The notes below the pieces were generated by a model that ran no database searches, was not told the origin of the DNA, and saw only the letters and a list, made by a program, of their open reading frames with translations. A stretch of DNA of 56,369 nt, the filler included, from Sphacelaria rigidula (lineage: Eukaryota): assembly GCA_964200075.2 (NCBI GenBank). It is 7 parts of 7 records of this genome, joined end to end, with 100 filler letters (N's around TTAATTAATTAA, not from the genome) between each part and the next. Parts side by side here need not be neighbours in the genome. Positions count along the whole stretch, not along the records: positions 1 to 7,967 come from CAXNAA020012807.1; 6 more parts are not named here. The stretch is one strand, 5' to 3'. The translations under genes and the position numbers were made by a program. Positions 2,879-56,369 of the stretch are shown in pieces. How positions within the stretch are numbered: position 1 is the stretch's first letter; each line of letters starts with the position of its first letter.

Positions 2879-3204
2879 TGCCACGTAAAACCGATCCAGG
2901 AACAAACCCAGATGCGTTCACAAGATAGACGCATGCCCCCAGATTGAGGGAATCAAACAAAACAAGAAGATCGTGCCCGAACAAACAGCTCAGACACCGA
3001 ATCTAACCTAAAACACGTTTTTCATGTACTGCGTTGCAGTATGTGTGCGAGCTCAGGCGTGTCACATAGTCAGTCCCCGATTTGTGTGTGCGAATGACAT
3101 CAACAAATCCATCGTCGAAAAACATGTGCGGGGAAAAGGAGGAGGAGGCGGCGGCCGGGGGGAGCGGCATTATATCAATCCTCCTAATCCTCTTCAATGA
3201 CGGG

Positions 3205-3560
3205 GGTTTACTCATGATCTTGTATGCCTCAGTCATAAAAATCATTGACCTGGCATCCCCACAAAGCCGGGACGGAGCACACCGGGTTTTCGCCAGACTA
3301 GGCTCGCACTCAGTGACCAAGCGCGAAGTGCCGTGGTGTGTTCGGCGAGTCGCATGAAGAGTGAGCTGCATGCTGCTAAGATTATTTTGCCTTAAGCTTA
3401 CCCATTATCTTGCATTAGGATGGCAGCCTCCAATGAGTTGCTTTATTCTCTGGTATCGCCACTTCCAGGGACAGCCACGGCTTTTACACGGCGTGATGGG
3501 TGTCTCACCCTATAAAGACTACGTACTACCACCATCCCCTTTGTGTGGAGTAGAGGTTCT
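3205..3560 (-). mobile_element. Non-coding retroposon, C-tail family B
   Basis: Minus-strand end ...GATCATGAGTAAACCCCC; 3315-3510 is the reverse complement of 40035-40235; 3' end also at 14964-15018, 38795-38863 and 56295-56369; related fragment at 3715-3775. Confidence 0.7.
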
Positions 3561-4559
3561 CCCACGCCGTAAACCATGATCTACCTCGACTACCACCATG
3601 GTCACAGCAAAGAAAACGCGAGCGCGTAAAAAACAAATCGGTAACCTGGTTGCCTAGCTTACGCAGTGAGTGTCGTGTTTTATGGCGTCGTTACCAGCCG
3701 ACGCCAACCGCATGGCGGGTCCGTCCCTACAAAGCCGGGACGGAGCACGCCGGGTTCTCGCCGCACCACGCTAGTGGGAGGAGGAGGGGGGGTGTACTCA
3801 TTTGTTGCTTGCATTCTTCGTTTGACCATTGACCACGTATCCCTTTCGAGATGGAGCACCGTTCCTCTTCCTAATAGAGACACCTCCAACATCTCGGTGC
3901 TCATTACCTTTCTTCCACACATGAAAAAAACTTTTCACATATCTTATCCCCGTCCTGTTTCGCCGTCTCTGGTCACCATCTATCTCCTAGTATAGCCATC
4001 GTTTTTTCCATACTGTCCAATGTAGCAAACGATTTCGTGCCACGTTCGCTTTACTTCCCACATTTCCCCCTCTAGCACGTTCCGTTCCTCCTTGTATAGT
4101 TCACATTCTGTCATTTTATGAGTTCCACTCTCTACTGCTTTGCGACAGGGGCGACTTTGTGCACCTACTTCCTCCTCCACTCGACTACTGGTACACCTCT
4201 CTCTTCTTTCTGGCAGGTCCAGGTCCCCCGCCGGAAACCGCAATTTCAATTATTTTGCGGAGTCCATTCGGACATGCAGATATGTTTTCATCCCTATCCT
4301 CTCTCTCAACCCCCCGTTTATCTTCAGGTGTTCTTCCTCGTCTACTTTGCGTCTGAGTATTTCTTTTTTTCTTTTTTCATCATGTCTCTTACTTGTCTTG
4401 TACCCGCCACATTCACCTATAAACACTATCTCATCTTGGTTTTCTCCTATCTCCTCCCATGCCTTCTCGGTTCCTCTATCCCACCTTATTTCCGCCTTCC
4501 CTCTCGTTATTTTCTTCCATGCAGCCCTATTGACCATGACTAAACATTTCTACCTCTGC

Positions 4560-5790
4560 ATGTTCTTTACGCCATATTGGTATTTGAATTTCCCAATGTT
4601 TCTGTTTTCAAGCAGATGCATTGCCAATTCTGCTCTCCATGCTGTACTACTCGTCGTTTTCGAGCATCCAAGTATTTCTTAGCTGCTGGCATCTGAATTG
4701 TTTCCAACTTCTTCATCAACTTCACGTTCTCCTCCCATACTTCTCCTGCACATTCCAGCTTTGGTACAATAACCTTCTCCAGGAAATATCTCTCAATCCT
4801 AGTATCTACGTGCGAGTCTCTGAGTATCACGTCCATCCTTGCTATCTGTGCCTTATCCTTACTAATTTTTCATGTGTTCATCCCAAGAACAGTTTCTCGA
4901 GATCTTTGTCCCAAGGTATGTATTCTGGTCTACGACGGGAAGTTCCTCTTCTCCCCACTTTCATTTAAACTCCACCTAGTTTTATCTTCGTTACATACAA
5001 GTACAGCGCATTTGTTCGCGTTCGCTGCCATTCTCCAAACCCTAGTGTAGTCTATCGCCTTCTCTATGTGCTTCTGCAATCCTTCTGGTGTTTATGATAC
5101 CCCCACAAAATCACCCGCGAACATTAATCCTGATACAATATCTTCACCCACGTTGACTCCTTGCTTTGCTGCTTGTATTGCTATTATCAGGTCATTAACT
5201 CATACTTTGAATAGAGTGGATGATAACGTACATCCTCTTGCAACTCCTTGTAAACCATCAAAATATACAGATATTTCCCCGTCTAGCATCATAGCACTTT
5301 GGCACATTCTGTCATCTTCTTCACCACTCTTCACATCGTTCCTCTTATCTCAGTTTCCCACAACTTTTTCCACAACCCATTTCTCCATACTGTGTCGTAG
5401 GCATTTCTTTTCTAGCATCGTTCCTACTCTACAGTATCATTCAGAATCTTACAGAATGTTTTCCCTACCGTGCTCAGTAGCGTTATCTCCCGATATTTCT
5501 CTGGGTCAGCCTTATCGTCTTTCTTGCAAAGGTTGACGACTACTCCTTCTCTCCACCTCTTGGGTGTGTACTCGTTTTCCTAGACCCAGTTGTACAGCAT
5601 CACCGTCATGGTACTTGTCGCCTTTCCCCCGTACTTGAGAAATTAATCCACTATTTCGTCTGCCCCGGCTGCCTTTCTGTTATTAAGTTTAGCTACACAC
5701 TCCCTTACCTCATCTCTGGTAAACTCTCTCTGCAGTTCTTTCAAGACACTATCCTCCTGCTTTTGACGCCTCTACAAATGCTCCTGCTCA
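4560..5790 (-). pseudogene. LINE reverse transcriptase domain (disrupted; catalytic FADD reads FAGD)
   Basis: Manual minus-strand translation of 5000-5260; ORF 4567..4836 resembles the post-RT region. Confidence 0.85.
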
Positions 5791-6326
5791 CGCGTTGATT
5801 TCTTTTTCGAATTTCCTATCGAACTCCGTGCTTGTCTTTGGTGTTCCTAGTTTCCGGTAATGCTCGACTAGCACTGCTCTCTTTTCCTTCGAACTGCTGA
5901 CCATTATACCGTTCTGTGCCCGCAGTGTAGCTATCCCCTTGTCCATCCTTCCTGCCTGCTTTCCCGTTATCCCTTTCACCCCTGCCCACATTTGTGTCAT
6001 CCCGCCGTCGGAATTGTCGTTTGGTTTTTTCACCACGTCTTGCCCCTTTCCCTCCTTTATCTGCTGTACCATATTTTTTACTTCCTTCCGAGCTTTAGTA
6101 TACTCCTCCCATCCTGCCGTAGTTTTACTCGATATTCATCTCGAGTGGGCCCCTCTCCACACTCTGATAGACTCTTTCACCTCCTCATCCAATCATTCTA
6201 CTGCTCTGTTGCATACTGTTAGTTTCTCCCCTATGACTTTACTCGCTGTGTTCTTGACCAACTGCTCCCGTCCTTCTATAATCTTCGCTCCTGCCCGATC
6301 CCTTTCCATCTCGGTATCAAGTGTAT

Positions 6327-7240
6327 CTACCCTTTCCAACAGCTCGGAAATTCCAGTGCATTTCTGGCCATCTCTTCTTGGAACTCTCGCTGTATTTCTT
6401 CCATTTCTAGTTTATTTCTTCTCCATTTGTACCACTTCTGACCCCGCCTATTTCTTTCAGCTCTCGCCTGTTGGCTTTCTGCGCATATTAAGCAATGATC
6501 TGTAGTTGCCACGTCTTCTGCGCATACTTGTACTTCGATTTCCTTACTATTTCCATGCTCTACCGCTATGTAGCCAAGAACGGAGCGTTCTCTCCCGTCT
6601 TTGCATTTTCTAGTCCATGGCCATTGCGCCTCTGGCTTCTGTGCTCTATTGTTCATCGTCTTCATCTCGTCATTGTCAAGGACCTTGAGCATTTCAAACC
6701 CATTCGTGTTCTTACGTTCCCCGTATTGCCCCATGACACCATCCGGTTGACCTGTTTTTTCAACCCTTGTATTTAAATCTTCCGCTAGAATTGCTTCTCC
6801 TTGCCTTCTATACTTATGTACATCAGCTGCTATCTCTAAACACCTCCGCTGTATATCGTTCACCCTACTCTTCGATTCTGGAGGCATGTAGATGTTCCCT
6901 ACGAACAAGTATTTCGCTCCCCGTCTTCTTGGTACGATAACCTTATCCATATGCTTTCGTCGAACTTCGTGTTATAGATCACTTCTATGATGTCAAACAG
7001 GTTTTCTTTGACTAAAAACCCTACGCCCCCCGTCCCCCTGCTCTTGGACTTGAGTCCCTTCCGCTTTCTCTCTATCCATGCGTACTCTTCAACTTTGCAT
7101 CCTATTTTTGCCTCCTCTTTCTCCCATGACTCTTGGATCCCTACTATATCTAGGTCGCAGTTTCGTACTTATTCGGCTATCTCTATTATTTTGCGCCCGT
7201 CTGTAGCAAATCCACTCACGTTCCACGATCCTATTCTCAA
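6327..7240 (-). pseudogene. LINE apurinic-type endonuclease domain (disrupted)
   Basis: ORF 6327..6950 plus upstream WNV/QE motifs in adjacent broken frames. Confidence 0.85.
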
Positions 7241-7967
7241 CTTCCTTTCCGAATCATTATCGGCTCTCCTGTTGTCTACTGTTCTCTCTCCGTCGTTTCT
7301 ATTTCTATTTTCCCTTGCCCGTTTTTTCGTGCTGTTTCTGGGTTGATCTTTGTCTATTTGCTTCGGGCTGCAATGTCCCCTCCCCTTCCCCTTCCGGGCA
7401 CCTACCTATCTTTTCCTGCTCCTCCTTTGCTCCATTCACCCCCGGACTATGTCTTAGGTTTGTTGTTCCATGAGCAACGGATACTCTGCATCCAGCCTTC
7501 CTGACCCATGCCGACACCTTGCTTGTCTCTATCCTTTCCTACTCCTTGCTTGTCTCTATCCTTTCCCACTCCTTGCTCGCTCCCTGTTTTAGTGTGACTC
7601 AGAAGTGTTCTCCCTCCCTTCCTACCTTTCCTCTTGCCAAAGAGTATAGTCCAACTTCATCGCATTTCTTTTTTGACTATATTCTCGTCATATCCTTGCG
7701 GACTCCAAATATCAACTAGTACGTTACCCGTCCAATCTTTACCTCTCGATTCACCCTTCCTCACCGTCTCTCTCTTAATCTCTTTCGATAGAATCTCCAG
7801 CCTGTTCGTTGAAGGTATTGCGGTGGGATGTAGTCAACGTACTGGGATATCCCAATCCTAGTACTCGTTGGGGGTCTGGTTTCTTTCAGTTCTTCTGCTG
7901 GCTCACCGACACTAAGGAATGCCTCCGACACGGGCTTGTAGCCTGAAGCCAAGTTCAACATCTTTGA

Positions 7968-10240: not shown

Positions 10241-10410
10241 AAATGATGGCATGAAACCTATGCATGACTCAAATACCCCTTTGATGTTCGATGTTTCGAG
10301 TGTTCGTGGCCACCATGCCGATAGCGATTCATGTACCCAAGGAAAGGTTGATGCCCAGGTGCATCAAGATGTTGGACATCTCTGGACGATGCTGAGACCA
10401 TATTTTTGGT

Positions 10411-11135
10411 TTGGTGGTGAGGAACATACAAGCGGTATGGGCGAGTCCGGCGATGGCGGTGCCGAACAGAGATACCTTCCGTTTGGTTAGTGACTACCAA
10501 GCGGTGAACGCGCTGATAGAGCAGTCTCGGGGGGTAATGCCGAGTCAGGAGGACATGCGGGAGTTACTGGGAGCGCAATGCTTTAGCAAATTGGACTTGC
10601 TCCAGGGGTATTGGCAAATGCCTCTAGCACCGGACGCACAAGAGTTCTCCACGATCACCACACCAGAAGGTCTGTTTACGCCAACTCGTGTTCCTCAGGG
10701 TGTGCTGAATGCTGCATCCTATTTTCAAGATGTGATGACTGATCTTTTGCAAGCATTGGACTGCAAAGTGTGGGTCGATGATGTTTTTTATTTCGCCGAT
10801 TCAGAAGAAGCGTTGCTGACGTTGTTAGACGAGATTCTCGGACGTTTGGAAAGTGTTGATCTGTTCGTCGCAGCTCACAAGTGCACGTTTTTTTTCTCGA
10901 GAAATAGTTTGGTGTGGCAAGGTGTACTCGCACGGAACTGGGTCTCATGATCCCGTACGCATTCAAGGGCTGAGTACAATGCGACGTCTTCAAAATGCAA
11001 GCGAGCTGATGCAGTTTCTACAGGCGGTCAATTGGTTGCGAACTTCACTACCTCGCATGGCAGAAGTAGTAGCGCCGCTTCGTGCGTTTTTAGGACAACT
11101 GATGGCAGGGGCGTCGCGTAGGACCAAGCGGGCTC
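10411..11135 (+). pseudogene. Ty3/Gypsy reverse transcriptase fragment
   Basis: WASPAMAVP, FRLVSDY, FSKLDLLQGYWQ, RVPQG, WVDD; continues after a frameshift into LMQFLQAVNWLR. Confidence 0.93.
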
Positions 11136-13800: not shown

Positions 13801-14860
13801 TGCGCATCGATTTTTTTTATTTTGCGATGTTGGACCTCTATTATAATAGCGCTAGACACTAATCCTCAACCCAAGAGTGCCGATCGCGCAACGCGTAGAA
13901 CTCGGTGACGAAGCAGAGGATTGGACTGCCGTTTCTTGCGTGCGCTCCCCACACACCCAAGCTAGGTCAACCTAATTCACTTTTTCGTTTTAGCATGATA
14001 CCAAGCCGCAACAAACCCAAACGTACAAAAATGAGGTGTTTTGCGCTCTGGGAGGGGGTTTTCTCGCTGCTGGCGCGACGCCAGGAAAATGTGAAATGGA
14101 TTCTCCTAGATCTTGTGTGTATGCGGGGGTGTGTGAAGTGTCGAGAACCGCGCTATCTCCCGTGCTAGAGCTGTCCCATGGTAAATCAAGTATATAAGTG
14201 ATGAAGCGTGCGTTCTGCTCGAGAGGGCCTCGGCACAGGTGCGAACACCTACTGACGTGTTCAGTATTCCTCCACACTTATGTTTTTTTTAGTTTGCCGC
14301 TGCTTTTGGTCGTTAGGCCCTCCAGTCCCACCCATAACAGTATGGGGTACGTCAAGGGTCTGTCGGGACAAGATTTTCGTACACGGACTCCTCCCCCATT
14401 TCCCCCCTCCCCCTCCCAGACTGCATTCCTTCAAAAGTTGACATTATCTTTTTCTTTTGGGGAGGGATTATTGAAGAAATTCATCAAGAAACACTAACAA
14501 AAACCGAGGAGTATGGTCGGCTCTGCGATATTCGTATATTTTCTTCTGCTTCTTGCCCGCTCTACTGTCCCGATGACCTCGGGATGCTGGCCACCCTCAC
14601 ACACATGTATGCACACGAGCGCACGATAGTTACAGCCTGCAGCCAAAGTAGCAACTTTATCTCACGCCTCGCGAAACTTGCCCGGAGTACTGGTAGATAG
14701 TTGAGGCCTACGACGCGGAACATGATCCCATGAACGGTGTCATGGTAAGTGATGAGCTTGCGGGGCGGCGTGTCCACCATTTTCATCGATCTCCATGCCG
14801 AGGATCTCTGTAGACGTGAGCTGACCGCACTGGTTGTCTCCCTCCCCCCCCCCCCCTCCC

Positions 14861-14956
14861 AGGAGTAGGAACGGTGCTCCGTCTCGAAAGGGATGCGTGG
14901 TCAATGGTCAAACGACTAAGGCAAGCAACAAATGAGTACGCCCCCCCCCCCCTCCC
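14861..14956 (+). mobile_element. 5'-truncated copy of the C-tail LINE family A
   Basis: Matches the LINE 3' UTR at 3790-3880 (reverse complement); flanked on both sides by C-run+TCCC. Confidence 0.85.
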
Positions 14957-15018
14957 TTCAAAAGCAATGGTCTCATGACTATGGCATGCATGATCATGAG
15001 AACCCCCCCCTCCTCCCC

Positions 15019-16134: not shown

Positions 16135-16980
16135 CGTTGTATTTTCCTACTATTTATTGCCCCCCCAGCCCCCGCTCCCCCCCTTCTCCCCCGCCACGTA
16201 CTCGAGTTTCCTTCAACGATTTTCCTACTTGTTCCTTCTCCGTCGCCCGTCATTCTTTGATTCAACCCCCTCTTCCCCTTCCTCGGGACAAGTCTGTGGT
16301 GTGAAGAATTACCGCACCTCTTCTTTGGTAATTGTACACCCTCTCACATGTTGGTGTCGCGGATCGGATTAGCACTACCTCACCGCGCCGAATAAACTAT
16401 CGTCAAAAAACGAAAATAAAATAAAATAAGTCACATGATCACTTTTTTTAATGACGGAAACCAGATGCTCCTTGGATGACAAATAAAAAGCATCTGCTTT
16501 TGTTTTCTTCACTTTATCAACAAATTGCATGTATACATATATATATATATTATATTCAATTTCTCAATATTCCGTATTACAGGAACATGATTCTGTTGTA
16601 ACAGTCAGACGACCGGGGCGTGGCGACTTATCAAGCATTTCTCGTCTCCAGCATCTTGGAGGCATCCATGTCGTAACCACAGTCGGGTTGACGCCGCATC
16701 AGTTCGTGCAAGACATCGAGTCAAATCAACCAATGTGAATCAGTCAAATCGAACAGCACAGTACCTTGCTGATTCCGATGCCCTCCATCGTTGGAGTAAC
16801 CACTCCCGCGATGACGTCCAGAGCATAACCTCGTCGACCACCAGTCTCGTCGTGGCTAGCCTTTCGTCGCCTGTCATGCTCCTCCTGCTGCTCTTGTGCA
16901 CGCCTCATGTCATCTTCCAGTTGAGCGTTCCGTGCTAAGCAACTGTTATTATCCGCGTAAGAGTACAAAGCAAGACGAAA

Positions 16981-16990
16981 CAGCAGCAGC

Positions 16991-17026
<36 letters not shown>

Positions 17027-17180
17027 AGCAGCAGCAGCAGCAGCAACACCAGCACCAGCACCAGCAGACAACACAAGACATCAGAAGACTACAATAGAAA
17101 ACAATAGACAACAACAGAAAACAATAAACAACAGAAAACAACAGAAAACAATAGACAATAGACAACAACAGACAACGACT
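16981..17180. repeat. Compound CAG/CAA/CCAGCA microsatellite and A/C-rich low-complexity tract
   Basis: Direct reading. Confidence 0.92.
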
Positions 17181-24201: not shown

Positions 24202-24289
24202 GGTGGGGGGCGGGGTGGGGGCGCATCTTTGTGTCATGTTAGTGGGGCGCGAACAAAGTGGACCGCCCCCCCCCCCCCCCCTATCGTAG

Positions 24290-24366
24290 TGCTCCGTCTC
24301 GAAAGGGATGCGTGATCAATGGTCAAACGACTAAGGCAAGTAACACATGAGTACGCCCCCCCCCCC
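24290..24366 (+). mobile_element. 5'-truncated C-tail LINE family A insertion with clear TSD
   Basis: C(n)TATCGTAG on both sides (ending 24289 and 24374) of TGCTCCGTCTCGAAAGG...ATGAGTACG. Confidence 0.88.
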
Positions 24367-24585
24367 TATCGTAGGATGACTCGGATTGACTATCCTTATC
24401 TGTGTGGCCCCTTGCTGTTAGCTCGTGATGTGGTCTGTTTCTGAATCATCCGTGATAGTAACAAGTGAGAAGAAAAGCCTTGTCGAGCACGAGGCCAGTG
24501 CTACTGGAGGAGTCCCTCGTGAATAGTTCACTTGTCCAGATTATCTGGCAGAGGCTGCAAAAGTCATGAGCGGCTAGTAAAGCAT
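24367..24585 (+). repeat. Diverged fragment of the 11498-11810 LTR family
   Basis: Shares GGCCAGTG..CTGGAG.AGTCCCTC.TGAATAG..CTTGTCCAGAT..TCTGGCAGA with 11670-11740. Confidence 0.7.

Positions 24586-25502: not shown

Positions 25503-25565
<63 letters not shown>
25503..25565. repeat. (CAA)n microsatellite
   Basis: About 21 units. Confidence 0.97.
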
Positions 25566-26600
25566 GTGAGCAGAGCTTCAATCTGGGGGAATCCAAAGAG
25601 AAAAACGGCAGGGAGGTACAACGGAGCAGAGCTTCAACCTAGGGGAATCCCGAGAGAAAAAATGGCAAGATCAGTATGCGACCAACGCATGTTGGTCGGA
25701 AGTAAAATCTGAAAATCGGTGACCAAGCGAGATCGAGCGCCAGCAGGAAGGAGATACTAGAGTTCCAGTATTCATAGGTGGTGGGTGGCTTTAGTAGTTC
25801 TTCGATCGTCGTCCGATGTAGGTGGTCCTGTTGTGGATGTCGTAGAGTAGGGTCCTAGTGAAGAAAAGAGGACAAAGAATACTACAGAGGGGGGGGGAAT
25901 TCGCAGCAAAGGAGCGCCGTTCAATGCGGGGTGTGGACGTCGTGGCTACGGTCGATGTTGCACTGGAGACCACGGCGAAGTCCTTTGGGCTTGAGGCGCT
26001 GGAGGCAACAGGATCCGCGTGGTGCAGATGGGCTGGTGGTGTATAGTGCTGGCCGGAGCTTAAGCTGTATGGGTCCAGGGTCATCGATGAAGCGCACGAT
26101 GTATGTGTCGGCAGAAACCAGGTTAGCGGAGTGGGTCTGACCCAACCACCAGAGGTTGTCGCTGCATTTAAGCCAAAGGAAGCTACCCTCGGGTAGCATT
26201 CGCTGGTTTGCGAAAAACTTCGTCTTACAAGTCTTGGTGGGTATAAGTTCGTAACCATCGTCTACAAAGCGTAGTCCCTGATCGCGGTGAAGTTCGCGGG
26301 CTGCTGCGCCACGGCGCATGTTGCGATATTTCTTGTTATGAGCAAGATGCTAATGTTGGGATTGCGTCCAGTACAGGAGGATTGCACGGCGGTGCAATTG
26401 AAGGTTGGATTCGCTTCCCCAAACGCTCTTCGAAGACCGTATCAGTGGGTCTTATACATCAAAGCAATTTTTCAACCTCGACCACGGGTGATCTGGGGGC
26501 CGGAGATGGTGGACACGGTCAATCGGAGGGGATGTTCCGTCACGTCGTCGGTGGTAACATGGTAAGGCGAGGACTTGGTCGAGTAGCTGTTGAGAATATA

Positions 26601-27800
26601 CTATGTGAGTCCGGCAGGCGGGTACTTTGGCATGTCGCTTGTATCATGCGGGCTCGTGCAGGGTTTGCATCTGTGCACGAAGACGCGGGGTTTGGTATCC
26701 TTGCCCTGGAAGTCGCGAGGCAGGTCGAGATAAAGCAGTTTGTCATCAACGGGTTTATCATCCGGTGATGATGGCGATGGTCCGACTGTGAGGATCTTGA
26801 ACGGTCCCGTCCAATTGAGGGAACATTTTGGCTTCAAAATGTTTTCTTTGGCTGCCTTGCTGGGGCCTTGGCGGATGGTCGACAAACTCTTGTAGATCCA
26901 AACCCAATCACCAACTTTCCACTTGGGGCGTTTGTGCAAGAGGTTGTAGAGAGCAGTGTTGAATCTCTCTAGGCACGAAGCGTTGATAGGGTGTTGCTTT
27001 CGCACGAGAATAAACGCTTTGCGTTGTCGTGAATACGCTAGCTCGTGATAGGATATCTGATTCTGATCCAATCCTTGGTCGCCATCGAACGTGTGTCGCT
27101 CAAACACGGTGATGGGCAGCCGAGGGTAACGTCCAGCATGGAGTTCGTTCGGGGAAAGGCCTGTGGCGGCGTTGACCGAGTTGTTGTAGGACAACATGAT
27201 GTGCGAGAGATGGAGGTCCTGGTCATTTTGGTGCTTATTGACAACCATAGAGAACATCTGGGCCATGGTGTGATTTACTCTTTCGGTACCACCGTTACCG
27301 CACGGGTGATAGGCGCTCGTGGCAATTTTGCGGAGGGCCAGGAGCTTGTAAAGCTCATCAGAGAGATCTGAGCAAAGTTGCTGACCATTATCTGAAAGGA
27401 GTCGCTTCGGGCAACCGTAGTGCTTAGTGTAGTCGTGGACGAATATGTCGGCCGTTCCGGCGGCAGTAAAATCCGCAGCGGTCATCGCGTACATGGACGC
27501 GTGGCGGCTGAAGCGGCCAGTGAAGAATAGAATAAGATGTAGGTGTTGCCGCGACCTGTGGTCGGTAGAGGGCCAAAGTAGTAGTCAAAGGACACGAGGT
27601 GGCCTGGCGCGTTGAGGAGTCCCATGGAGATGACGGGCCAGCGAACTGTCTGCCGTGAAGTCTTTCGGGCTTGGCATTTGAAGCATTGCCGAATCCACAG
27701 GCGGGTAGAAATTTCTATGCCAATCCACCAGTAGAAGCGTTCTAAGAGCGCTAGGGTGCGGGTGACGCCAAGGTAACATGACAAGTCTGTGTGACAGCCT
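26601..27800 (-). pseudogene. Gypsy integrase (frameshifted)
   Basis: ORFs 27482..27925 and 26601..27494. Confidence 0.92.
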
Positions 27801-28976
27801 TTCATGACCCAGGGGCGCATTAACAATGGGACATATATGCGCGTTGGTTCGTCATCGAGTAGTCGTGCTTGGCGTCCCGTGGTTGAGACGGAAATCGCGC
27901 CCGTCAAAGGCGTGGGGCGACGCACGCGTAGTTGTACACATTCACCCGTAGTAAAAAGGGTGCCTACACGAGTTCGTGTACATCAGAGATGTCTGGTGGG
28001 GGCAGTGTGCCAACGGGGGCCAGAAGGGCGGATGGACAAGGGACTGGACAGTCAAGTTGTAAGTGCCAGATGGCTGCGCGACATAGTGGTTCCGCGTTCT
28101 GTTCGCGAGCCCAATCGCGGTGAGAGTGACTGGCGAGAAACTCGCGTAGTTGACCTTCCGCTGGCGAGCCGACCAAACATGGTGGGGTAGGCAGCGGGGG
28201 AATAGGCGACGGGGCAGAAACGCCGACGTCGATATCTGCCCCTGGAGCAGGAGCTGAGTCGTCAGCTCCATGCTCGGGAGCGGTAGATGTTGATGGCACC
28301 GTTACGGGCGGCGGGGCTGTATCAGTGCGCGGCGAAGATTGTCCGCGGCGCGTCGGGCACGTTGCAAGAGGTTTCGCGGAGCGTTGCGTGCTGGTCCGTG
28401 GGACCGGTGCTGCGTGGCTCGTGGAATTTGCAGGTGTAAGAGGTGGCGGTGGGGCACTCGGAGGGGTGGTGCGGGCGGCAGACCGAGAGTGCGTGTTGTC
28501 GGAGTTCAAGTAGGTGACCGAAGGTGTCTCCGTGAAGAACTCCGCGCGAGTACCGAAAGTGCGGAACTCGACAAAATTAGAGGTAGTACGCGCTAATCCA
28601 CCCAAGACGGCGTCATATGGTAGAGGGCGAGGCCCTCACATATGCATATCAGTTTCTGGGCACTGAAGGTCGAGGGTGTAAACGGGCGTTGAAAACCGTC
28701 TAATCGGGTGAATGCCAGGTTCATCGGGTTCCGTTAAACGGCAAGCCGGGATGGAATCTGCGGCCGTAGGCGGCAGGGGTAGTCGAGAAAAAAGGTCAGC
28801 GTTTCCGTTGGTTTTGCCTGGACGGTGCTTAATGGAATACAGGTATGCTGTTCGAAACTCCAACCATACTTGTACGCGCGGGTTGTGTTCACCAACCTTG
28901 GTGAGTTGTTCGAGTGCTTCATGATCTGTATAAATCTCGAAGGGCACGTGAAACAGATATTATCGAAGGCGCTTAA

Positions 28977-30012
28977 CCCTTTTGGGGCCGTGCCTCCAGA
29001 ACGACTAATGAGGCTGGTCAGGAATGACGTGTTTGGCGTCTGCACGAAGCAGTGGCATGTTGCTGAAAATTCGCGTATGTAACCGCAGGGTTATGACGAA
29101 GACCGAAAGTTTCATCCAATCAATTTTCAGGTGCAGGGTGCGCATTAGATAATGTACGTCTGATGTAGCAAGCAGTATGGGTCGTGGTCGAGAGCTTCCA
29201 ACAGGATGCGGCGACCGGCGAGCCACCCGCCACTTGTGGCTTTGGATGATAAGTTTGTCCCCATCACCTTGCCACACAGCCCTTCGTGGTCTGGGTGGGC
29301 CGCCATCCCCCCTTCTTGCAAGCGGCAAATTCTCTTCGAAGGGTATCAGCGTTGCGGCGCGCATGCATACAACAGTGTAGTACAGTACAGTGTAGTACGT
29401 CTCTCCGACTGAAGCAGCACCTGCCGCTGCATACTCCCTTGCACGTTCTGGGCAATTCTCAGCTACCGAAATCAGCTGCCGATATACAGCATTGTCATTC
29501 CCGTTCACTACATACATGTGGACTGCACACTGCAAGTCATCGGCAGAGGGATACGCAAAACTCATTACGGTAGCTCATGTTGTCTTTCCAGAGCCCCCCT
29601 GGATTTTGTGCCTCATGAAAATGACCACATTGTGGCATGTACCCTCCTTCCCGGTTTTTGCCGGTCCACCCTGTGTTAGTGTAAATGACTACGTTTCAGT
29701 ATAGAATTGGGACCCGAAAAACACTCCGGAAAAACTCGGTGACGGTATACTGAGTGCAAGGAATACCATAAAACCAAGCTACGACCACCCTGCACTTGGA
29801 AACCTGGGGAGGCTTATCTGGGCCAGGGATAGGCCCCCCACACGATGCTTGCAGTGACATTACACTCGACAACAATCCCCACGCTGGTCGTTCGGGTCTG
29901 GTCGATAATTTTTGCCTCGCCGTGTTTGGGCAGGTCGCTCGGAGCCTTATTGTGTATTATTCCACTAATACAGGGTTGACCCTGTGTTAGTGGGAGTCCG
30001 GTCCCAAAAGGG
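28977..30012. mobile_element. Non-autonomous piggyBac-type element (1036 bp) inserted in the Gypsy RNase H
   Basis: TTAA-CCCTTTTGGGGCCG ... CGGTCCCAAAAGGG-TCAA; removal restores TWAI-KRLR; the left 185 bp recur inverted at 40336-40525. Confidence 0.9.
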
Positions 30013-30531
30013 TCAATGGCCCAGGTGATTACTCCGCCTTCCAGTTCTAGCGGGCTCCAATTGGCCTCATTGGTCAGGGTGGCGCGGCTGATATGGAGGA
30101 TGGATCGTACGGAGCCATCAAACTGAGTTTGGTTCAAAACTCCTCCAAATCCGTTTGTGCTGGCGTCAGTGTGGAGATAGAAAAGGCGAGTCTTGTACTG
30201 CCTCCCAATCAGGAAAGCAGAGTACCGGCTTTTCGGTAAGCGTCATAAACAATTCACGGGCGATATTCTCCATATCGATCGTGAAGGTAAACACGGCTCC
30301 TTCCTTGAGTAACTCAGTAAGGGGGCGAATCCTTTTAGATAAATTCGGCAACAAATTGCGATAGTAGGATAGTCCGCTCATCAATGAGCGAAGTTGAAGA
30401 AGGTCAGTTGGCATCGGCAAGTCAGTCATCGCCTCAACTTTGCTTGTATCCGGATGCAGGCCTGCTGGCGAAATGGAACGCCCTAGGAAGTCCAAGTCAG
30501 TCGCACAAAGGCGAGCTTCGGATGGAGACAG

Positions 30532-30748
30532 TGTAATGCGTGAGAGGACCGCGTGCTTAGAGGATTGCGCCGTAGTTCAAAATACCTCAGGAACGACGTT
30601 TTTCAAAACCAATCGGGTCAGTCCCTGCAGGTACCACGCCCCTGACCCTAACCCCAACACTAACACTAACACTAACACTAACACTAACCCTAGGGGTCTT
30701 CAAATTCCGGTGCGGTCCTCTAAGCACGCGGTCCTCTCCCGCATTACA
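30532..30748. mobile_element. 217-bp TIR element (TGT...ACA termini, 4-bp TSD ACAG) carrying telomere-like hexamers, inserted in the Gypsy RT
   Basis: ~33-bp TIRs with one mismatch; ACAG at 30528-30531 and 30749-30752; removal restores LRTHSLKLSPSEARL. Confidence 0.92.
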
Positions 30749-32168
30749 ACAGTTTCAAACTGTGTGTGCGTAGGCGAGAGAGAAATTCTCGTAGAGTGCG
30801 GATATGTGCAATAGGTGAGGCATCGAAAGCAGTAGCGTCATCCAGGTACATGATGATGTGCTCGAGGCCCTCGGTGACGCGTTGCATTGAGCATTGAAAT
30901 CATCCCGGGGCAGTGGCGGCGCCTTGTGGGATTCAAAGCCACTCGTAGAGTCCGGACGAGGTACAAAAGACCGTCAGTGGGACTGTGTCAGGGTGTATAG
31001 CATTCTGAAAAAAATCCAGAAGCGAGGTCGAAGGTGCTGAATATGTTCCCTTCGCCTAAGGAGTCGAAGACTTCATCAATGCGGGGAATTGGAAGTTTAC
31101 CAACCACAGTGACGCGATTCAACCGTTGGTAGTTCACGGTTTTGCGTATGTTTCCATCCTTTTTGGGAACGACCACAAGTGGCGAGGCCCAAGGAAAGTA
31201 GGAGTGTTGCATTAATCCCGCTCCCAAACACGCATCCAAGATGGCGTTAACCTTGTTGGTAAGGATTGGGTTTGTCCGGTATGGCCGAGAAGAGATCGGC
31301 GAGACGCCGGGTTGGAGGGTAACCTCAGAGGTCAGCGTTTTGCAATGCCCAAGATCCGTCTTAGATCTGGAAAATCGGTCTTGGTAATGCAGCAGGACAT
31401 CACTGAGTTCTCGGATGACTGCCGGTTCCCAGCCGGGCCCATGAAGGTCAAAATTGATGTCGCGCATGTGTGGCTGCATTTGGTGCCACATCTGCAAGAA
31501 ACTATTCCGAGAATCTGGTGATAAGCGTTGAAGCACTTCGGCAAGAGGATCGAAATTTGACTTGGCAAGATCCATGGGGTGGGCCTGGGGTGCAGTCGCA
31601 GAGGCAAGGTCGAAATAAGGTTCATCGACACAATGTACTGAATCCGTCGGAGATGTTGCGTTTGGCGCGGCAGGCTCTGTTACGCACGTCTCGAGTGGGA
31701 TGCGCATTAGGGGAGCAGCGACGATTCTTAAAGTATAGCCGGGTTCCAAGTAAACATGACCCGTAAGAGGGAGGAGTTGGTGTCCCGCCGAGACAAAATG
31801 TTCTGAGTCGGCTAGTGCGCCAATACGGGGTAACATTTCGGCAAGATAATGACCCATAAGTGCTGGCATGCCATTTCGGCGGACTAGTGCAACTTCTATA
31901 AGTTGAGGATCGTCGGAGAGTGTAATACCAACGCTACCGTTGTTTCGTAGGTGGAAAGTAGCTCCGGTTGCTTGAGTATTTTTGTGCAAGGCCAGAGCGC
32001 CGTGGAGTGTACCAACGTGTTCAAGGTTGAATTCTCCACGAGGTGTGGAATGTGGCGATGGTGGGGGAAGCGTGCGGTAAGTTCGTTTATTAAACCGCAT
32101 ATAACAGACGATTTTATATTTTGGGGTTCAAACAAAATATGGGGCTGAAGTGGCATATCTGTCTTGCA

Positions 32169-32268: not shown

Positions 32269-32296
32269 GGGGGCGTGGGCATGGGTGTGTTTTGGG

Positions 32297-32331
<35 letters not shown>

Positions 32332-33118
32332 GGGGGGGGGGGATATTTCAGCAAAATATGCTCATTTATCTCGATTTGGGTCGGAGCGAATTTCCAAGCT
32401 TTTGATCGAAAAAAGAGGGAAAATTGTGAGACGGTACATGGTCTCTCTTGTACAAAGCAGTTTGTACCGTCTGCACTTTTTGCATGCATTGTGTCTTGGA
32501 TGCGTGTGTGCGTGTTTCATATGGGAGGATGTGAAAAACAAGTGGGTAACGTGCAGTGCAGATAGCCCAGAAATATCTGTTATCTCTCCTCAACATGCGA
32601 GTGAAAAGGACTTGGACAATGTGCAGCTTTATATTGCCTGCACTGTCCGTGAGCGTGTATGCAACTCGGTTGCCCACCCCTCCACGCAAGTTCGTCGCTG
32701 ATCCCTTAAAAGAAAATGCTCAAGTTTTCGCCAACAAAGAATGAACAAAGCATACCCAACTATTAATAGTGTAGTGTATCTATTCCTGTGCTCAACTCGT
32801 GCTCTATCCTGCAGGGTTGCGGTGGTCGCTGAAAATGATTTGTATGGAGTTTGCATGGTTCTATGAACGGGTGGAATCTGTTGTGGTTGTCTGTAAAATA
32901 GGGGTCAAGTGCCCTTTCGTGCCCTTCAACCGCATGTTTTCGACCGGAAAAACTCAGCTTTATTGCTTTATACTTCTTCTCCGCGCACAGCACGTTATTA
33001 AAAACAGTCGAAGCCGACTAGGAACAGAAGAGCGGTTGACGTATCAGTTTGAAAAAAATATTTCCCCCCCCACTCGTTCGATCGAAATAAAATATGCGAA
33101 GACACGCCCCAAGTAAGG

Positions 33119-36971: not shown

Positions 36972-37002
36972 CCCTAACCCTAACCCTAACCCTAGCCCTA
37001 AC
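36972..37002. repeat. Short interstitial (CCCTAA)n telomere-type repeat
   Basis: Five units; the following GAGAACCCTCGGGCAAGGG motif recurs inverted at ~8120-8140. Confidence 0.8.
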
Positions 37003-37159
37003 CCCGACCAAGGCATGTCGAGAACCCTCGGGCAAGGGGGGTGCAGAGGGCTTCCTAAGAAAGAGAGTGGAACCTCGCTCGGGCATTTTGAACCAAAAAA
37101 TTGGATCGGGTTCATTTGTATTCTCACATTTTTACTAGTTCGAAATGTTTTAGTATTGT

Positions 37160-38702: not shown

Positions 38703-39074
38703 GTGAGGGACACGGAGTGAGGCTTGTGTTCCATGTGTTCCAATAGTAGGACCGTCTTTTTTCGATTTTGGTTTCGCCCCCCATTCCCCCCGTCCTCCCG
38801 TAGGGATGTAAGGTCAACAATCTTATGACGACGGCACTCAAGATCATGAGTACACCTCCCTCCCTTTTGTCGCTTTTACCCCGTTTGTCAAGGTCGGTGA
38901 CGTGTCTTTTCTCCTTGCGAGGCCTGACTTTTTTTCATTTTTTTTTCGTGTTAGTACGTTGTGGTGGGAAAAAGGATTGGGTCGGTAAAACATATTTTGA
39001 GGCCGATGACTACCGTGAACTTGAGTAGTAGTTGACTCACGCGAAATGCCTCAACATCAGGCGGCCATTGCCTT

Positions 39075-39115
39075 GGGGGGGGGGGGGCGTACTCATTTGT
39101 TGCTTGCCTTAGTCG
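39075..39115 (-). mobile_element. Very short 3' fragment of C-tail family A
   Basis: G-run followed by CGTACTCATTTGTTGCTTGCCTTAGTCGT. Confidence 0.75.
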
Positions 39116-39599
39116 TCAATGGGGGGAGAGACTTGACCTCATGGAACTTTTGAATCTTCAAAAATCCCTCGACCAGGGAGAGTTTTTTGTTTGTTTTTTC
39201 TGTAGGAGCAGCTGAGCCAATACACGATGGTGCACAAAAGTGTACAACGGTGGTTTGTTGTTCAGCATAGATGACCTCAAATAGACTACTCCGCGATACG
39301 AGAGCCGACTTAATCTCGTCGAGAGCCAAATGGCACTGATGGTTCCTAGGGCGGGTAGATCGCTACTGTAGGGAAAATATGGAACATGACTAGTGTATCC
39401 CCTACGTTGGAGGCCATTATACAGAGACTGGGGTATCCCGTGATTGTGTGGTGCAAATCAGGGGCGGACGATGCTTATCTTCATTTTTATTGACGTCATC
39501 AGGATGAACATTACTTCCTCTACAGCAGTTACCCTGCAGTGGTTTGCTAGTCTCGAGCAGTCCACGCGAATTCATTTGTTGAACTGGAAGCATGGAATC

Positions 39600-39853
39600 G
39601 TTTGATACATGAGGCAGTAGCGAGAAAACGATAGTAAGATTACTATACGCGGAGGTAGATGGTGGCCACAGACGGCGAAACGGGGCGGGAATAAGATATG
39701 TTGGAGGTTTTTGTGTAATGTATGGAAGAAACGCAATGAACACCTCACTGTCGGAGGTGTCTGTATTAGGAGTAGGAACGGTGCTCCGTCTCGAAAGGGA
39801 TGCGTGGTTGATGGTCAAACGACTTCGGCAAGCAACAAATGAGTTCGCCCCAC

Positions 39854-39905
<52 letters not shown>

Positions 39906-39920
39906 ACCCCCACCACCCCC
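39600..39920 (+). mobile_element. 5'-truncated C-tail LINE family A copy with a long C-run
   Basis: 39620-39850 is the reverse complement of 3790-4020; followed by about 50 C. Confidence 0.85.
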
Positions 39921-39995
39921 ANNNNNNGAGACGGGTGCTCACTCGAAAAGGGGGCGTGTGGTTGGCGGACAACCCCCCCCCCCCCGCAAAAAATG

Positions 39996-40026
<31 letters not shown>

Positions 40027-40034
40027 CCCTTCCC

Positions 40035-40235
40035 TTCGGTTAGACACCCATGGGGCAATGTAAGAGCTGTGGCTGTCTCTGGAAGTGGCGATACCACAGA
40101 ATAAAGCAACTAATTGTAGGCTGTCGTTTTAATGCAATGTAACCAGTAGGCTTCGGGCCGAAAAATCTTAGCAGGATGTAGGTCACCCTTCATGCGACTC
40201 GCCGAACACACCACGGCGCTGCGCGCTGGGTGGTT
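40035..40235 (+). mobile_element. C-tail family B copy, cut by the segment end
   Basis: Reverse complement of 3315-3510. Confidence 0.75.
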
Positions 40236-44149: not shown

Positions 44150-45530
44150 CAGAATCATGCGGGTATGAGACTTCTCAGAGAACATAAAGAAACATAGGGT
44201 ACCGGCATGAAAGTCTCACAGAAATTTCGAAATTGCCGGGTACCGGTTTAAAAACCTTACAGAAATTGCAGAATTTTTCGAGTACGATATGGGAGGCTCA
44301 CACAATAACCGTACCGACAACCGGTTACCTCTTTAAGAGCATACCTGCGCTCCGGATACGGCTAAACATTCTGTACATAACTCACAAAACTGTCGGGTAA
44401 GGGTATGGGAGGCTTACAGTACTAACAGAAACTATCGGGTAGGGTATGAAGGTTGCACAGAAAACCGTATCCGCAACCGGGTATCTATATTATCAAGAAC
44501 ATACCCGCCCCCCCCCCGATAACGGTACAGGGAGCTTACAGAAATCACAGAAGTATCGGGTAAGGGTATGGAAGTCTTAGAGAGATCACAAACCTGTCAG
44601 TTCCCGGTGTGAACGTCTGACAGAAGTCACAGAACTTTCGGGGAACGATTACCACGACACAACCACCATCAATGTCGATGGCGTGCATCGTGCTAAATGA
44701 TCCCCTGGTGGTGCAGATGAATCGCCCCCGCTCGAGCAACCACTCGAGTCTCGGGGTGATCCATTCAGACGGTCTGCAGTGCTGCTCATGTTTCGTGTTT
44801 CCACTCAGCAATACCTAGTATTCCGTCAGATTCCAGACTGAAGAACTTTCCAACATTAATTTTTTGTTGGTGTGCAGTGTTGAATTAAGGAATAGGGTGG
44901 GTTGCTTGATGGGGGGTACATATTCCGGTCATGGGGTTGTGTTTGGATTGAGCTTATATTCATACCTCGCCAGCGTATAGATCTGTACTGTACCTGCAAT
45001 CGGGTATATCTACGACGATATACCCTAACCCCAGGTAGGGGTATGGGAAGCTTACACAGCCGACAGAATTGTCGGGTACCTGTACGGGATGAAAGTCTTA
45101 CAGAAAGTTCAGAACTTGTCGGGGATGGTATGGGAGGCTCACAGGAAAAACGTAACGGCAATCGGGTTCTTCAAGAGCATACCCGCGCTTCGGGCACGGG
45201 TAAACATCATGTACGGAACTCACAGAATTGTCGGGTAAGGGTATGGGATGCTTACAGAACTCACATAAACTGTCGGGTAGGGTATGGAGGTTGCACAGAA
45301 AAACGTACCCGCAATCGGGTATCTTATCAAGACTGTACCCGTGCCCCCCAGTGACGGTACGGGAGGCTTACAGAAATCACAGAACGACCAGGCAAGGGTA
45401 TGAAACTTTCAGAGAGAATACACAACTGTCGGGTACCGATATTAACGTCTGACATAAGTCACAGAACGGTCGGGTACGGTAAACACCCACGAAAATTCAC
45501 CGGGTAGACAGAGAATCGTATCCTACAGAG
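44150..45530 (+). repeat. Two copies (44150-44645 and ~44990-45530) of an element built from short ACAGAA..TCGGGTA.GGTATG repeats
   Basis: 44289-44645 and 45130-45480 are colinear. Confidence 0.8.
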
Positions 45531-49331: not shown

Positions 49332-49937
49332 CTATCGCTTCCAATTTCGGAGGCCCTGCTTGAAGCCCTCTAGAGCCCCACCACCCCGCCGGCCCCCGCC
49401 CTTCCTCGAGATCGCCTGCGGTCGATGAGACTTCATCCCGACATCACTGCGATGAACCTCTTTCCAGCACCCGGCGCAAAACAACTCCGCCTCGTCCGCG
49501 TCGTTGTCCTCTTCACACTGACGACATCGGACAACAGCATCCTCCGAGCAAAGGCAACACCACAGGTCCGTCTCATCTCCGCCACCCTTGCCATCATCGA
49601 ATCCCCTCTTCTCTTTAGTTCCTCTTGTTTCCTCCACCTGCTCCGTCTTCTCACCACCAGTGGCAGCACCATCGCCGTCACGGCGTTGCCCCGTAAGGCC
49701 TAAGCGCGCTTCGTCCAAGGCTTGCTGTGCAATGAGTCGTGCAGCAGCATCGTCATCTTGAATGGGGTGGCTTGTAGCGCCCGCAGCTCCATGTCCGTAT
49801 CCGGTGGGGCGATTAAGTACGGGTTTGGCCGTCGGAGCGGCGGGGAGCCAAAGCCCATCATGGTCCTCATCGGATGGCTTAGTGGGAGGTTGTTGCGTGA
49901 TAATGCCATGCCCTTCCAGACGCACTTGGTCAGTCAC
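49332..49937 (-). CDS. Last exon of a protein with a ZFYVE19/ANCHR-like C-terminal B-box zinc finger
   Basis: CCAG/ acceptor, 201 open codons to TAG; WCCLCSEDAVVRCRQC...LFCAGCWKEVH...H matches the WCCICNEDA..RC..C...LFC..C..E.H pattern. Confidence 0.85.
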   Translation of the reverse strand: MTDQVRLEGHGIITQQPPTKPSDEDHDGLWLPAAPTAKPVLNRPTGYGHGAAGATSHPIQDDDAAARLIAQQALDEARLGLTGQRRDGDGAATGGEKTEQVEETRGTKEKRGFDDGKGGGDETDLWCCLCSEDAVVRCRQCEEDNDADEAELFCAGCWKEVHRSDVGMKSHRPQAISRKGGGRRGGGALEGFKQGLRNWKR

Positions 49938-50456
49938 CTGGCGAGTTGTGAGCCGGCATGGTGGCGGCGGAGTGCATTTACGAAAATACCAGTGAAGCGA
50001 CCACTTTTGAGCGGCGCATGGGCCAAGGCATAGGACACTTTTCTAGTACATTGGAAAGTCTGTGCCTTATTACAAAAAGGGCGACCGGGGAAGATACAAC
50101 ATCGGTTGGGCGGGGCACATGTCCCATGTCTACATATTCTACTGTCGAGATCCGGAATTTGCAAAACCTGATGCAAGCAGTACATCAAAGGCAAATAGTA
50201 GTAACGAAGCTTGTTCAACAGAACACACGGCCGACTAGGCGCTGCACATACGCCACTCGGTGTAACAACGCGTCTCATCAACATAGCAGCGCAATTGACC
50301 ATGCACGTCAAAAAAGGCACTTGTATCTTCAGTGGTACGATGCAGCTGGCGATGAGTGGTGCGCGATACACTGTTTGTACACTGCCCTCACAGTGGAACG
50401 ATCTGAGGAGCTAGCTACACGCCCACACACACTCACAAAACTCTTTACACACGCAC

Positions 50457-53418: not shown

Positions 53419-53479
53419 TCAACGGTGAGACTGGGGTCATCTCGAGATAAACTCGCATGGCACATACTGCTGGCCCTGG

Positions 53480-56294: not shown

Positions 56295-56369
56295 GGGGGT
56301 GGGGGTGTACTCATGATCATGCATGCCATAGTCACATGACCACTGACCTCGCATTCCTACGAAGCCGGG
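56295..56369 (-). mobile_element. 3' end of C-tail family B
   Basis: Minus strand reads ...GACTATGGCATGCATGATCATGAGTACACCCCCACCCCC. Confidence 0.75.

Follow-up and report, generated by a model that had tools for sequence, protein, structure and literature searches.

A LINE ending in a C run and a short partner with the same 3′ end in Sphacelaria rigidula

A stretch of 56,369 nt from the genome of Sphacelaria rigidula (assembly GCA_964200075.2), hereafter the window, carries copies of a long interspersed nuclear element (LINE) and of a partner resembling a short interspersed nuclear element (SINE). Both the LINE (five copies) and the SINE-like partner (four copies) terminate in ATGAGTAC(A/G)-C(n). 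The best explanation, which we consider very probable, is a brown-algal LINE of the RTEX-1/2_Ec32 kind accompanied by a short partner that borrows its 3′ end. The window is made of seven unlinked segments of ~8 kb each, joined via N44-TTAATTAATTAA-N44 artificial spacers, and has a GC content of ~49%. The anatomy of the copies, their tails, target-site duplications (TSDs), clustering and homology were read directly from this DNA; the coordinates are given in Table 1.

Table 1. Copies and fragments of the C-tailed LINE and its SINE-like partner in the window
Feature	Position	Strand	Evidence
SINE-like partner, complete, ~315 nt, ends ATGAGTAAA-C5	3199..3509	(-)	sequence alignment
SINE-like internal fragment, 39 nt with 92% identity to 3294-3256	3724..3775	(-)	sequence alignment
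LINE, near full-length, old, decayed	3776..7967	(-)	six-frame read, tblastn, Pfam
LINE fragment 14861-14940, 5′-truncated, between C13TCCC and C12TCCC	14844..14956	(+)	P0003 aa 1340-1360, 95% identity
SINE-like tail, 5′-truncated, ends ATGAGAAC-C8-TCC	14957..15013	(+)	alignment
LINE fragment 24290-24355, 5′-truncated, between C16TATCGTAG and C11TATCGTAG	24266..24374	(+)	blastn, tblastn
SINE-like copy, 5′-truncated, ends ATGAGTACA-CCTCCCTCCC, C6ATT upstream	38790..38867	(+)	alignment
LINE tail fragment 39116-39088, C13 tail 39087-39075, C6A upstream	39020..39128	(-)	blastn
LINE fragment, ~265 nt, aa 1281-1360	39590..39921	(+)	blastn, tblastn
Insertion cluster	39928..40039	(+)	sequence reading
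SINE-like 5′ part, cut by segment end, after C30 + TTCCCTTCGG	40040..40235	(+)	82.5% over 194 nt to 3509-3316
SINE-like 3′ part, ends ATGAGTACA-C5AC5TC, 5′ part beyond window end	56296..56369	(-)	alignment

Copies of the LINE were located by blastn with the long copy as query. Four truncated copies were found, at 14861-14956 (97 nt, 89.7% identity), 24289-24365 (77 nt, 87.0%), 39116-39075 (42 nt, 85.7%) and 39590-39863 (275 nt, 77.8%); together with the long copy they occupy four different segments. An earlier note on this DNA had described a C(n)-terminal motif on an element with apurinic/apyrimidinic endonuclease (APE) and reverse transcriptase (RT) and on four truncated copies of it in four unlinked segments; the blastn copies lie close to the coordinates it gave, and the distribution over segments was borne out.

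The terminal motif ATGAGTACRCCC was scanned with at most one mismatch, with 100 shuffles as control. The scan gave eight matches in the window (shuffles: mean 0.39, maximum 3 in 100). Five are 3′ ends of the LINE, at 3790(-), 14932(+), 24347(+), 39085(-) and 39839(+, one substitution), and three, at 3204(-), 38846(+) and 56303(-), belong to the SINE-like family. A ninth tail, ATGAGAAC-C8 at 14995-15010, also of the SINE-like family, was recovered through alignment. Over the nine copies of the two families the terminus reads ATGAGTA(C/A)(A/G)-C(n). In all five LINE copies ATGAGT(A/T)C(A/G) leads into a C run of 4-13; in the fifth, at 39590, ACT and C51 come after the C4, the whole end being ATGAGTTCG-C4ACT-C51-AC5ACCAC5A and then an N6 gap. 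None of the copies has an A tail, and all have C runs.

The ~315-nt SINE-like family is non-autonomous and separate from the LINE, with which the earlier note had pooled it. The two have ~75 nt of 3′ end in common, with 15 invariant columns over the nine copies. Tails of the partner are C5, CCTCCCTCCC, C5AC5 and C8TCC. Its head is without similarity to the 5′ region of the LINE, contains no tRNA according to ARAGORN and has no Rfam match (gathering threshold; E<=1 on 3100-3800). The internal fragment of the partner at 3724-3775 lies directly downstream of the C7TCCTCCTCCC that ends the long LINE copy.

Insertions of both families occur mostly at C runs. The 5′ junction is readable in nine copies, four of the LINE and five of the SINE-like family. 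At seven of these junctions, three of the four LINE ones among them, a C run of at least 6 lies no more than ~12 nt upstream. Such an upstream C run is found at a fraction of 0.0056 of window positions (binomial P 6e-15). C13 likewise precedes two further small fragments, at 39.05 kb and 39.99 kb, which were excluded from the nine.

Both flanks are readable in six copies. Three of these have clear duplications and a fourth has a weak one; the copy at 38.8 kb is unclear, and that at 3.2 kb is without a C run. The clear duplications, C(n)TCCC, C(n)TATCGTAG and C(n)TCC, all open with the C run. At 14.9 kb the LINE fragment is flanked by C13TCCC (14844-14860) and C12TCCC (14941-14956), and at 24.3 kb by C16TATCGTAG (24266-24289) and C11TATCGTAG (24356-24374), in both cases exactly as noted earlier. 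The SINE-like tail at 14957-15013 has C12TCC(C) and C8TCC as flanks. The weak duplication, of the 39.1-kb LINE fragment, is C6A/C13A. Flanking runs, where they occur, are always C on the sense strand and never G, so that the orientation of the element is that of the C run. The downstream run is the shorter of the two in three of four pairs (12 versus 13, 11 versus 16 and 8 versus 12; the fourth is 13 versus 6), which would fit a nick inside the C run and a partial duplication of the run.

Several insertions lie in tandem. At 14.84-15.01 kb the order is [C13TCCC][LINE fragment][C12TCCC][SINE tail][C8TCC...]; given the flanks C12TCC(C) and C8TCC, the SINE tail is a second insertion at one C-run site. 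At 39.03-39.12 kb, on the (-) strand, the order is [C6A][LINE fragment][C13][SINE-tail-like fragment], the last being a decayed piece from 39074 to ~39030, downstream of the LINE tail. The third cluster, at 39.59-40.24 kb, consists of a LINE fragment, a C51-rich tract, the N6 gap, a LINE-tail-like piece, C13, a 14-nt LINE terminus, C30, TTCCCTTCGG and a SINE head. Here the LINE-tail-like piece (39928-39972) is without its last ~25 nt and is followed by C13 (39973-39985); 39986-39999 is an ultra-truncated LINE tail of 14 nt, GCAAAAAATGGGCG, followed by C30 (40000-40029) and then TTCCCTTCGG. Within 39928-39985 (+), this piece resembles the LINE tail from about -90 to -25, with C13 directly after it and no ATGAGTAC; it may reflect an internal deletion or aberrant priming.

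The coding remnant of the long LINE copy spans 7733-3801. The stop codon TGA (3800-3798) comes next, followed by GTACA (3797-3793), C7 (3792-3786) and TCCTCCTCCC (3785-3776). A six-frame read found numerous stops and frameshifts in all three frames. The related protein P0003 aligns to this copy by tblastn in seven high-scoring segment pairs that span aa 13-1360 and are collinear over that range; 776 of the 1493 positions in the alignment are identical, and aa 13 aligns at 7733. The earlier note had ended the element at 7520; coding sequence reaches 7733, and between there and the segment end at 7967 there is no 5′ junction and no matching C-rich sequence, the 5′ end of this copy lying beyond the segment end. 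Within the region coding for the N terminus, a 27-nt unit is repeated 2.3 times (7517-7577), which repeats the peptide ...ERIETSK... relative to P0003.

Pieces of the long copy match the Pfam families RVT_1 and Exo_endo_phos, as does P0003. Pfam searches with single open reading frame (ORF) pieces of the decayed copy were nearly blank; the RT frame gave the RVT_1 match when its five stops were read through as X. P0003 (1360 aa) and P0005 (1328 aa) are each encoded by one single ORF. In P0003, Exo_endo_phos (aa 170-392, 3e-12) lies N-terminal to RVT_1 (aa 740-989, 1e-30), and both proteins have a C-terminal Cys/His motif, CPCG...H....C. Both also end in ...NGQMTKASNK, as do the window copies. 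At the DNA level this end is ...AAC AAA TGA GTA C(A/G) C(n), with the stop codon of the LINE inside the terminal motif; the 3′ untranslated region therefore consists of 5 nt and the C run. From P0003 and P0005 we infer that the intact element would have one ORF of ~1330-1360 aa, coding in this order for a ferredoxin/RRM-like N-terminal domain, APE, RT and the Cys/His motif, and stopping 5 nt short of a presumably templated (C)n tail.

The RT region of P0003 has 501 relatives at E<=1e-10, among which informative names belong only to gene models of Ectocarpus sp. CCAP 1310/34. Two of the Ectocarpus sp. models, P0006 and P0047, have 66% and 78% identity to the P0003 RT, and P0047 ends in ...ANGQMTTASNK. 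The protein of the window copy has 36-47% identity to the Ectocarpus models and 52% to P0003. Matches of the RT in PDB are to L1 and R2 RTs only (E ~1e-20).

Residues 16-89 of P0003 (window ~7690-7450 (-)) are conserved among relatives and lie in the same ORF as APE and RT. The AlphaFold model of this region has the order beta-alpha-beta-beta-alpha-beta (pLDDT 75, core ~90). The domain corresponds to no Pfam family. Foldseek returned ferredoxin-like/RRM chains including L1 ORF1p, none of them at E<=0.001 (best 0.03), a PDB profile search gave weak PTB RRM rows only (E 0.3-0.9), and an Atlas part search turned up nothing useful (score 0.77). Over the structural and profile searches, the RRM matches, hnRNP R included, were all non-significant. 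The predicted domain is thus RRM-like as a fold class only.

The 3′ end of the coding sequence shows extra conservation. The last 31 aa of P0003 and P0005 are identical at 28 of 31 positions versus 71.8% overall, a level reached by 9% of 31-residue stretches. A (V/E)(V/A)(N/D)G-like motif occurs within the last 25 residues in 33 of 122 relatives (C termini examined for P0002-P0059); in 27 of those 33 this VVNG-like motif stands 6-8 residues before the C terminus. The clade-wide ending is (G)(C/R)VVNG-x7/8-stop, at 3830-3801 (-) in the window. The motif codons GGTCAATGG are retained in the non-coding tail of the SINE-like partner, which hints at constraint on the RNA; the extra 3′-end conservation would likewise be compatible with an RNA element inside the coding sequence.

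The closest described elements are found in a curated Ectocarpus catalogue. Its entries (PMC12477816) list RTEX-1_Ec32 as 'single EN-RT ORF; (C)n 3′' with a 'C-rich' TSD (5867/5511 bp) and RTEX-2_Ec32 with '(C)n termini/TSD' (5582 bp). Two non-autonomous families are listed beside them: RTEX-N1_Ec32 (607 bp), for which the entry gives '60 bp 3′ end 83% RTEX-1_Ec32/RTEX-2_Ec32' and 'can be present in tandem', and RTEX-N2_Ec32 (188 bp). According to the same entries, the ends of the remaining Ectocarpus LINE groups are (CAA)n for RTE and (CA)n for CRE. The main-text excerpt of PMC12477816 describes the abundance of RTE-X and RTEX-N1, leaves the C tail undiscussed and has no occurrence of 'c-rich'. 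The window LINE has the same single endonuclease-RT ORF, (C)n 3′ end and C-rich TSD, and its size is compatible with the consensuses of 5.5-5.9 kb, given an ORF of ~4.1 kb and a 5′ end beyond the segment. The window partner, too, has the 3′ end of its LINE (60-100 bp in the Ectocarpus families) and occurs in tandem; at ~315 nt it differs in length from both N families. The window family is probably a sister family of RTEX-1/2_Ec32 in another genome, judging from this difference in partner length and from the 36-47% protein identity to the Ectocarpus models. The (C)n tail with a C-rich TSD is therefore already catalogued in Ectocarpus, and the window family adds a new member, not a mirror of L1 discovered anew. 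Literature searches on poly-C LINE tails found nothing relevant, which is weak evidence of absence, and a brown-algal comparative genomics preprint had no passages on RTE or homopolymers.

R1-group LINEs confined to particular microsatellites have a target repeat that matches their own 3′ repeat and are described as strictly site-specific. The window family differs from them in lacking such a repeat at two of nine readable 5′ junctions, and the clade differs on present evidence.

A further comparison is with LINE/SINE pairs of the RTE clade that have microsatellite-like tails. PMC6007223 (Nishiyama & Ohshima 2018) showed for RTE-related retroposons that the base opening the TSD tracks the one repeated in the 3′ repeat, and proposed that the tail RNA guides the nick site and/or primes through base pairing. 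PMC3747384 (Ohshima 2013), in the part concerned with these elements, has RTE and RTEX ending in simple repeats and not in poly(A), with SINEs that carry the LINE tail, taken there as stringent recognition; in its Table 3 all six of six green-algal RTEX families have non-A repeat ends ((CA)n, (CAA)n, (CCAT)n and similar). The window family agrees with the pairs of both sources, as described there, in the simple-repeat end, the lack of poly(A), the LINE tail on the SINE and the match between the first base(s) of the TSD and the repeated base of the tail, and the specific ~75-nt 3′ sequence common to LINE and partner extends beyond the terminal repeat as in a stringent pair. It differs in that those pairs have an overlap of one or two bases, (GTT)n, (CAA)n or T-rich tails and a T stretch ~10 nt upstream of the TSD, whereas here the repeat is pure mononucleotide C and the entire run adjoins or starts the TSD. 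By analogy, the window family may be seen as the mononucleotide extreme of the RTE rule that the TSD start follows the 3′ repeat.

With mammalian L1 (TTTT/AA nick), as outlined in the relevant part of PMC3747384, the family has in common a homopolymer tail, a TSD that starts with the tail base and landings in older tails. L1 differs by two ORFs, poly(A) added by the cell, relaxed recognition and the lack of sequence in common with its SINEs; the window LINE has one ORF, a C run that appears templated and a partner with ~75 nt of specific 3′ sequence. The features of the L1 clade are lacking here, there being no poly(A) and no separate ORF1 and ORF2 (P0003 and P0005 are single ORFs). Of the proposal in the earlier note that the family is the G/C mirror image of L1, the geometry held, with a C run in place of poly(A) and a duplicated target that begins with, or directly follows, the C run. 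The choice of nearest relative did not: RTE/RTE-X is closer, with its simple-repeat ends and TSDs that track the 3′ repeat.

We propose the following course of insertion, in which base-pairing priming, the position of the nick and the roles of the protein domains are what we infer. The element protein would recognize the last ~75 nt of its own RNA, which are coding in the LINE and kept in the non-coding partner, and would nick the G strand of a G/C homopolymer, either within the tract or at its edge. The G run exposed by this nick could then anneal to the C tail and prime reverse transcription; a cut of the second strand 1-10 nt past the C run would yield a duplication with C's at its start. 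One C run would become two with every insertion, and tandem clusters could therefore arise from repeat landings. C tracts could be lengthened by events that are very short or add only the tail. Neither the unusual APE specificity nor the special 3′-end formation suggested by the earlier note is required: selection at the annealing step would yield the same pattern, preferences of the endonuclease and of annealing being indistinguishable by sequence, and the C run could be templated in DNA like other LINE microsatellite tails.

A true G/C mirror of L1, with a G-tract-specific endonuclease and a non-templated C tail added after transcription, would share the tail and duplication geometry, which is that of L1 with A replaced by C, and would accommodate C runs varying in length from 5 to 51. 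We nevertheless regard it as rather improbable: impure tails such as C7TCCTCCTCCC, C4ACTC51AC5 and C5AC5 look inherited, the group to which the relatives belong has templated simple-repeat tails in the data of PMC3747384 and PMC12477816 cited above, there is a single ORF instead of an ORF1/ORF2 pair, and two junctions have no C run. About equally unlikely is a tailless, strictly target-specific element that ends in GTAC(R) and for which every C run would be a pre-existing target. The upstream C run at seven of nine junctions agrees with such an element, as does a downstream run not longer than the upstream one in three of four pairs; however, the 39590 LINE (C51-rich) and the 3.2-kb SINE-like copy (C5) are C-tailed without a 5′ C run, and the curated entries in PMC12477816 score (C)n as the consensus 3′ terminus. 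That the C runs are sequencing or assembly artefacts or a chance association is very improbable, since, even if an N6 gap comes right after C51 and the longest runs (30-51) are badly handled by assemblers, C runs stand at both ends of insertions beside matching unique bases (TCCC, TATCGTAG), they recur in four unlinked segments and two families with eight motif matches versus 0.39 expected, and (C)n was independently curated in another genome (PMC12477816).

Several points weigh against the preferred reading, a C-tailed LINE of the RTEX-1/2_Ec32 kind with a partner borrowing its 3′ end. The whole sample is 56 kb. Two of the nine junctions, those of LINE 39590 and of the 3.2-kb SINE-like copy, are without an upstream C run. 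For 39590 a sensitive search upstream found no further LINE homology, so that this junction is truly without a C run; the C-run target is thus preferred and not obligatory, and, since both exceptional copies are still C-tailed, the C run is part of the element and not of the target alone. The duplication of the long copy itself is not recoverable because its 5′ end is off the segment. The downstream C run is not divisible into element tail and duplicated target. The A runs of L1 are likewise not divisible into these two parts. Homopolymer lengths are uncertain, as the N6 gap adjoins C51. A conserved hairpin in the shared tail is not supported: RNAalifold predicts 10 pairs from seven sequences, none of them covarying, at -2.3 kcal/mol, and single-sequence folds have z-scores from -0.92 to +1.73, a stability that is not unusual. 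Membership in RTE-X, finally, is well supported but not proven: it draws on shared features and on similarity to Ectocarpus gene models, and the likeness to the RTEX consensuses is by catalogue description.

The assignable ORFs of the window are all of retroelement origin except for one B-box zinc-finger match; by Pfam, the 41 other window ORFs have retroelement domains only. The exception, an ORF at 49332-50042 (-), has an ANCHR-like B-box zinc-finger match (E 2.8e-8), the sole non-retroelement domain found in the window. At 26433-31782 (-) there is a decayed Ty3/Gypsy element with Integrase_H2C2 and RT_RNaseH; it has 43-51% identity to the Gypsy portion of P0047, an Ectocarpus gene model with a NADAR-type domain. 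A second, unrelated APE-RT LINE remnant was found at 52198-54386 (+), its RT having ~28% identity to that of P0003, and a separate RT fragment at 10396-10950 (+). A perfect (CAA)21 array occupies 25503-25565 and an (AAC)n/(AACAACAGC)n array 16979-17073; both may be tails of another LINE group, the tail of Ectocarpus RTE-1/2 being (CAA)n. Interstitial telomere-like repeats occur at 36972-37004, (CCCTAA)5.5, and 30648-30692, (CTAACA/CTAACC)7.5.

The window has 12 G/C runs of at least 10 nt and five A/T runs of that length. Eight of the 12 are linked to the two families (four LINE tails, two upstream duplicated targets and two in the third cluster); the remaining four, at 56-69, 32298-32330, 32332-32342 and 44508-44517, are without such a link. 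The suggestion in the earlier note that the family is a source of the poly-G/C tracts of this genome thus holds for eight of 12 long runs in this small sample. No recognizable tail motif adjoins 32294-32342 (G33 + G11) or 56-69 (G14); these G runs may have arisen as tails, either older ones or those of other families, or independently.

A broader reading, which we put forward only tentatively and hold to be less likely true than not, is that the RTE-X lineage generates G/C homopolymers in a self-propagating manner and, with its partner, would be behind most long poly-G/C tracts of brown-algal genomes. Each insertion would duplicate its C-run target, and abortive tail-only events, such as the 14-nt piece, would stretch tracts to 30-50 nt. 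The RNA element recognized by the RT would lie within the last ~25 codons, in the VVNG-x7/8-stop ending, and the N-terminal domain, RRM-like in the structural model, may hold the C-rich 3′ end.

The value of these observations as a discovery is limited, since the Ectocarpus catalogue already records the descriptive facts. For annotation, a C run together with ATGAGTAC is a sharp 3′-end marker for the LINE family and its partner. The rule that the tail repeat chooses the target, which in RTE concerns one or two bases, would here extend to a whole mononucleotide run. Long G/C tracts are prone to slippage and liable to form G-quadruplex or i-motif structures, and the family would offer a concrete, countable source of such tracts in brown-algal genomes.

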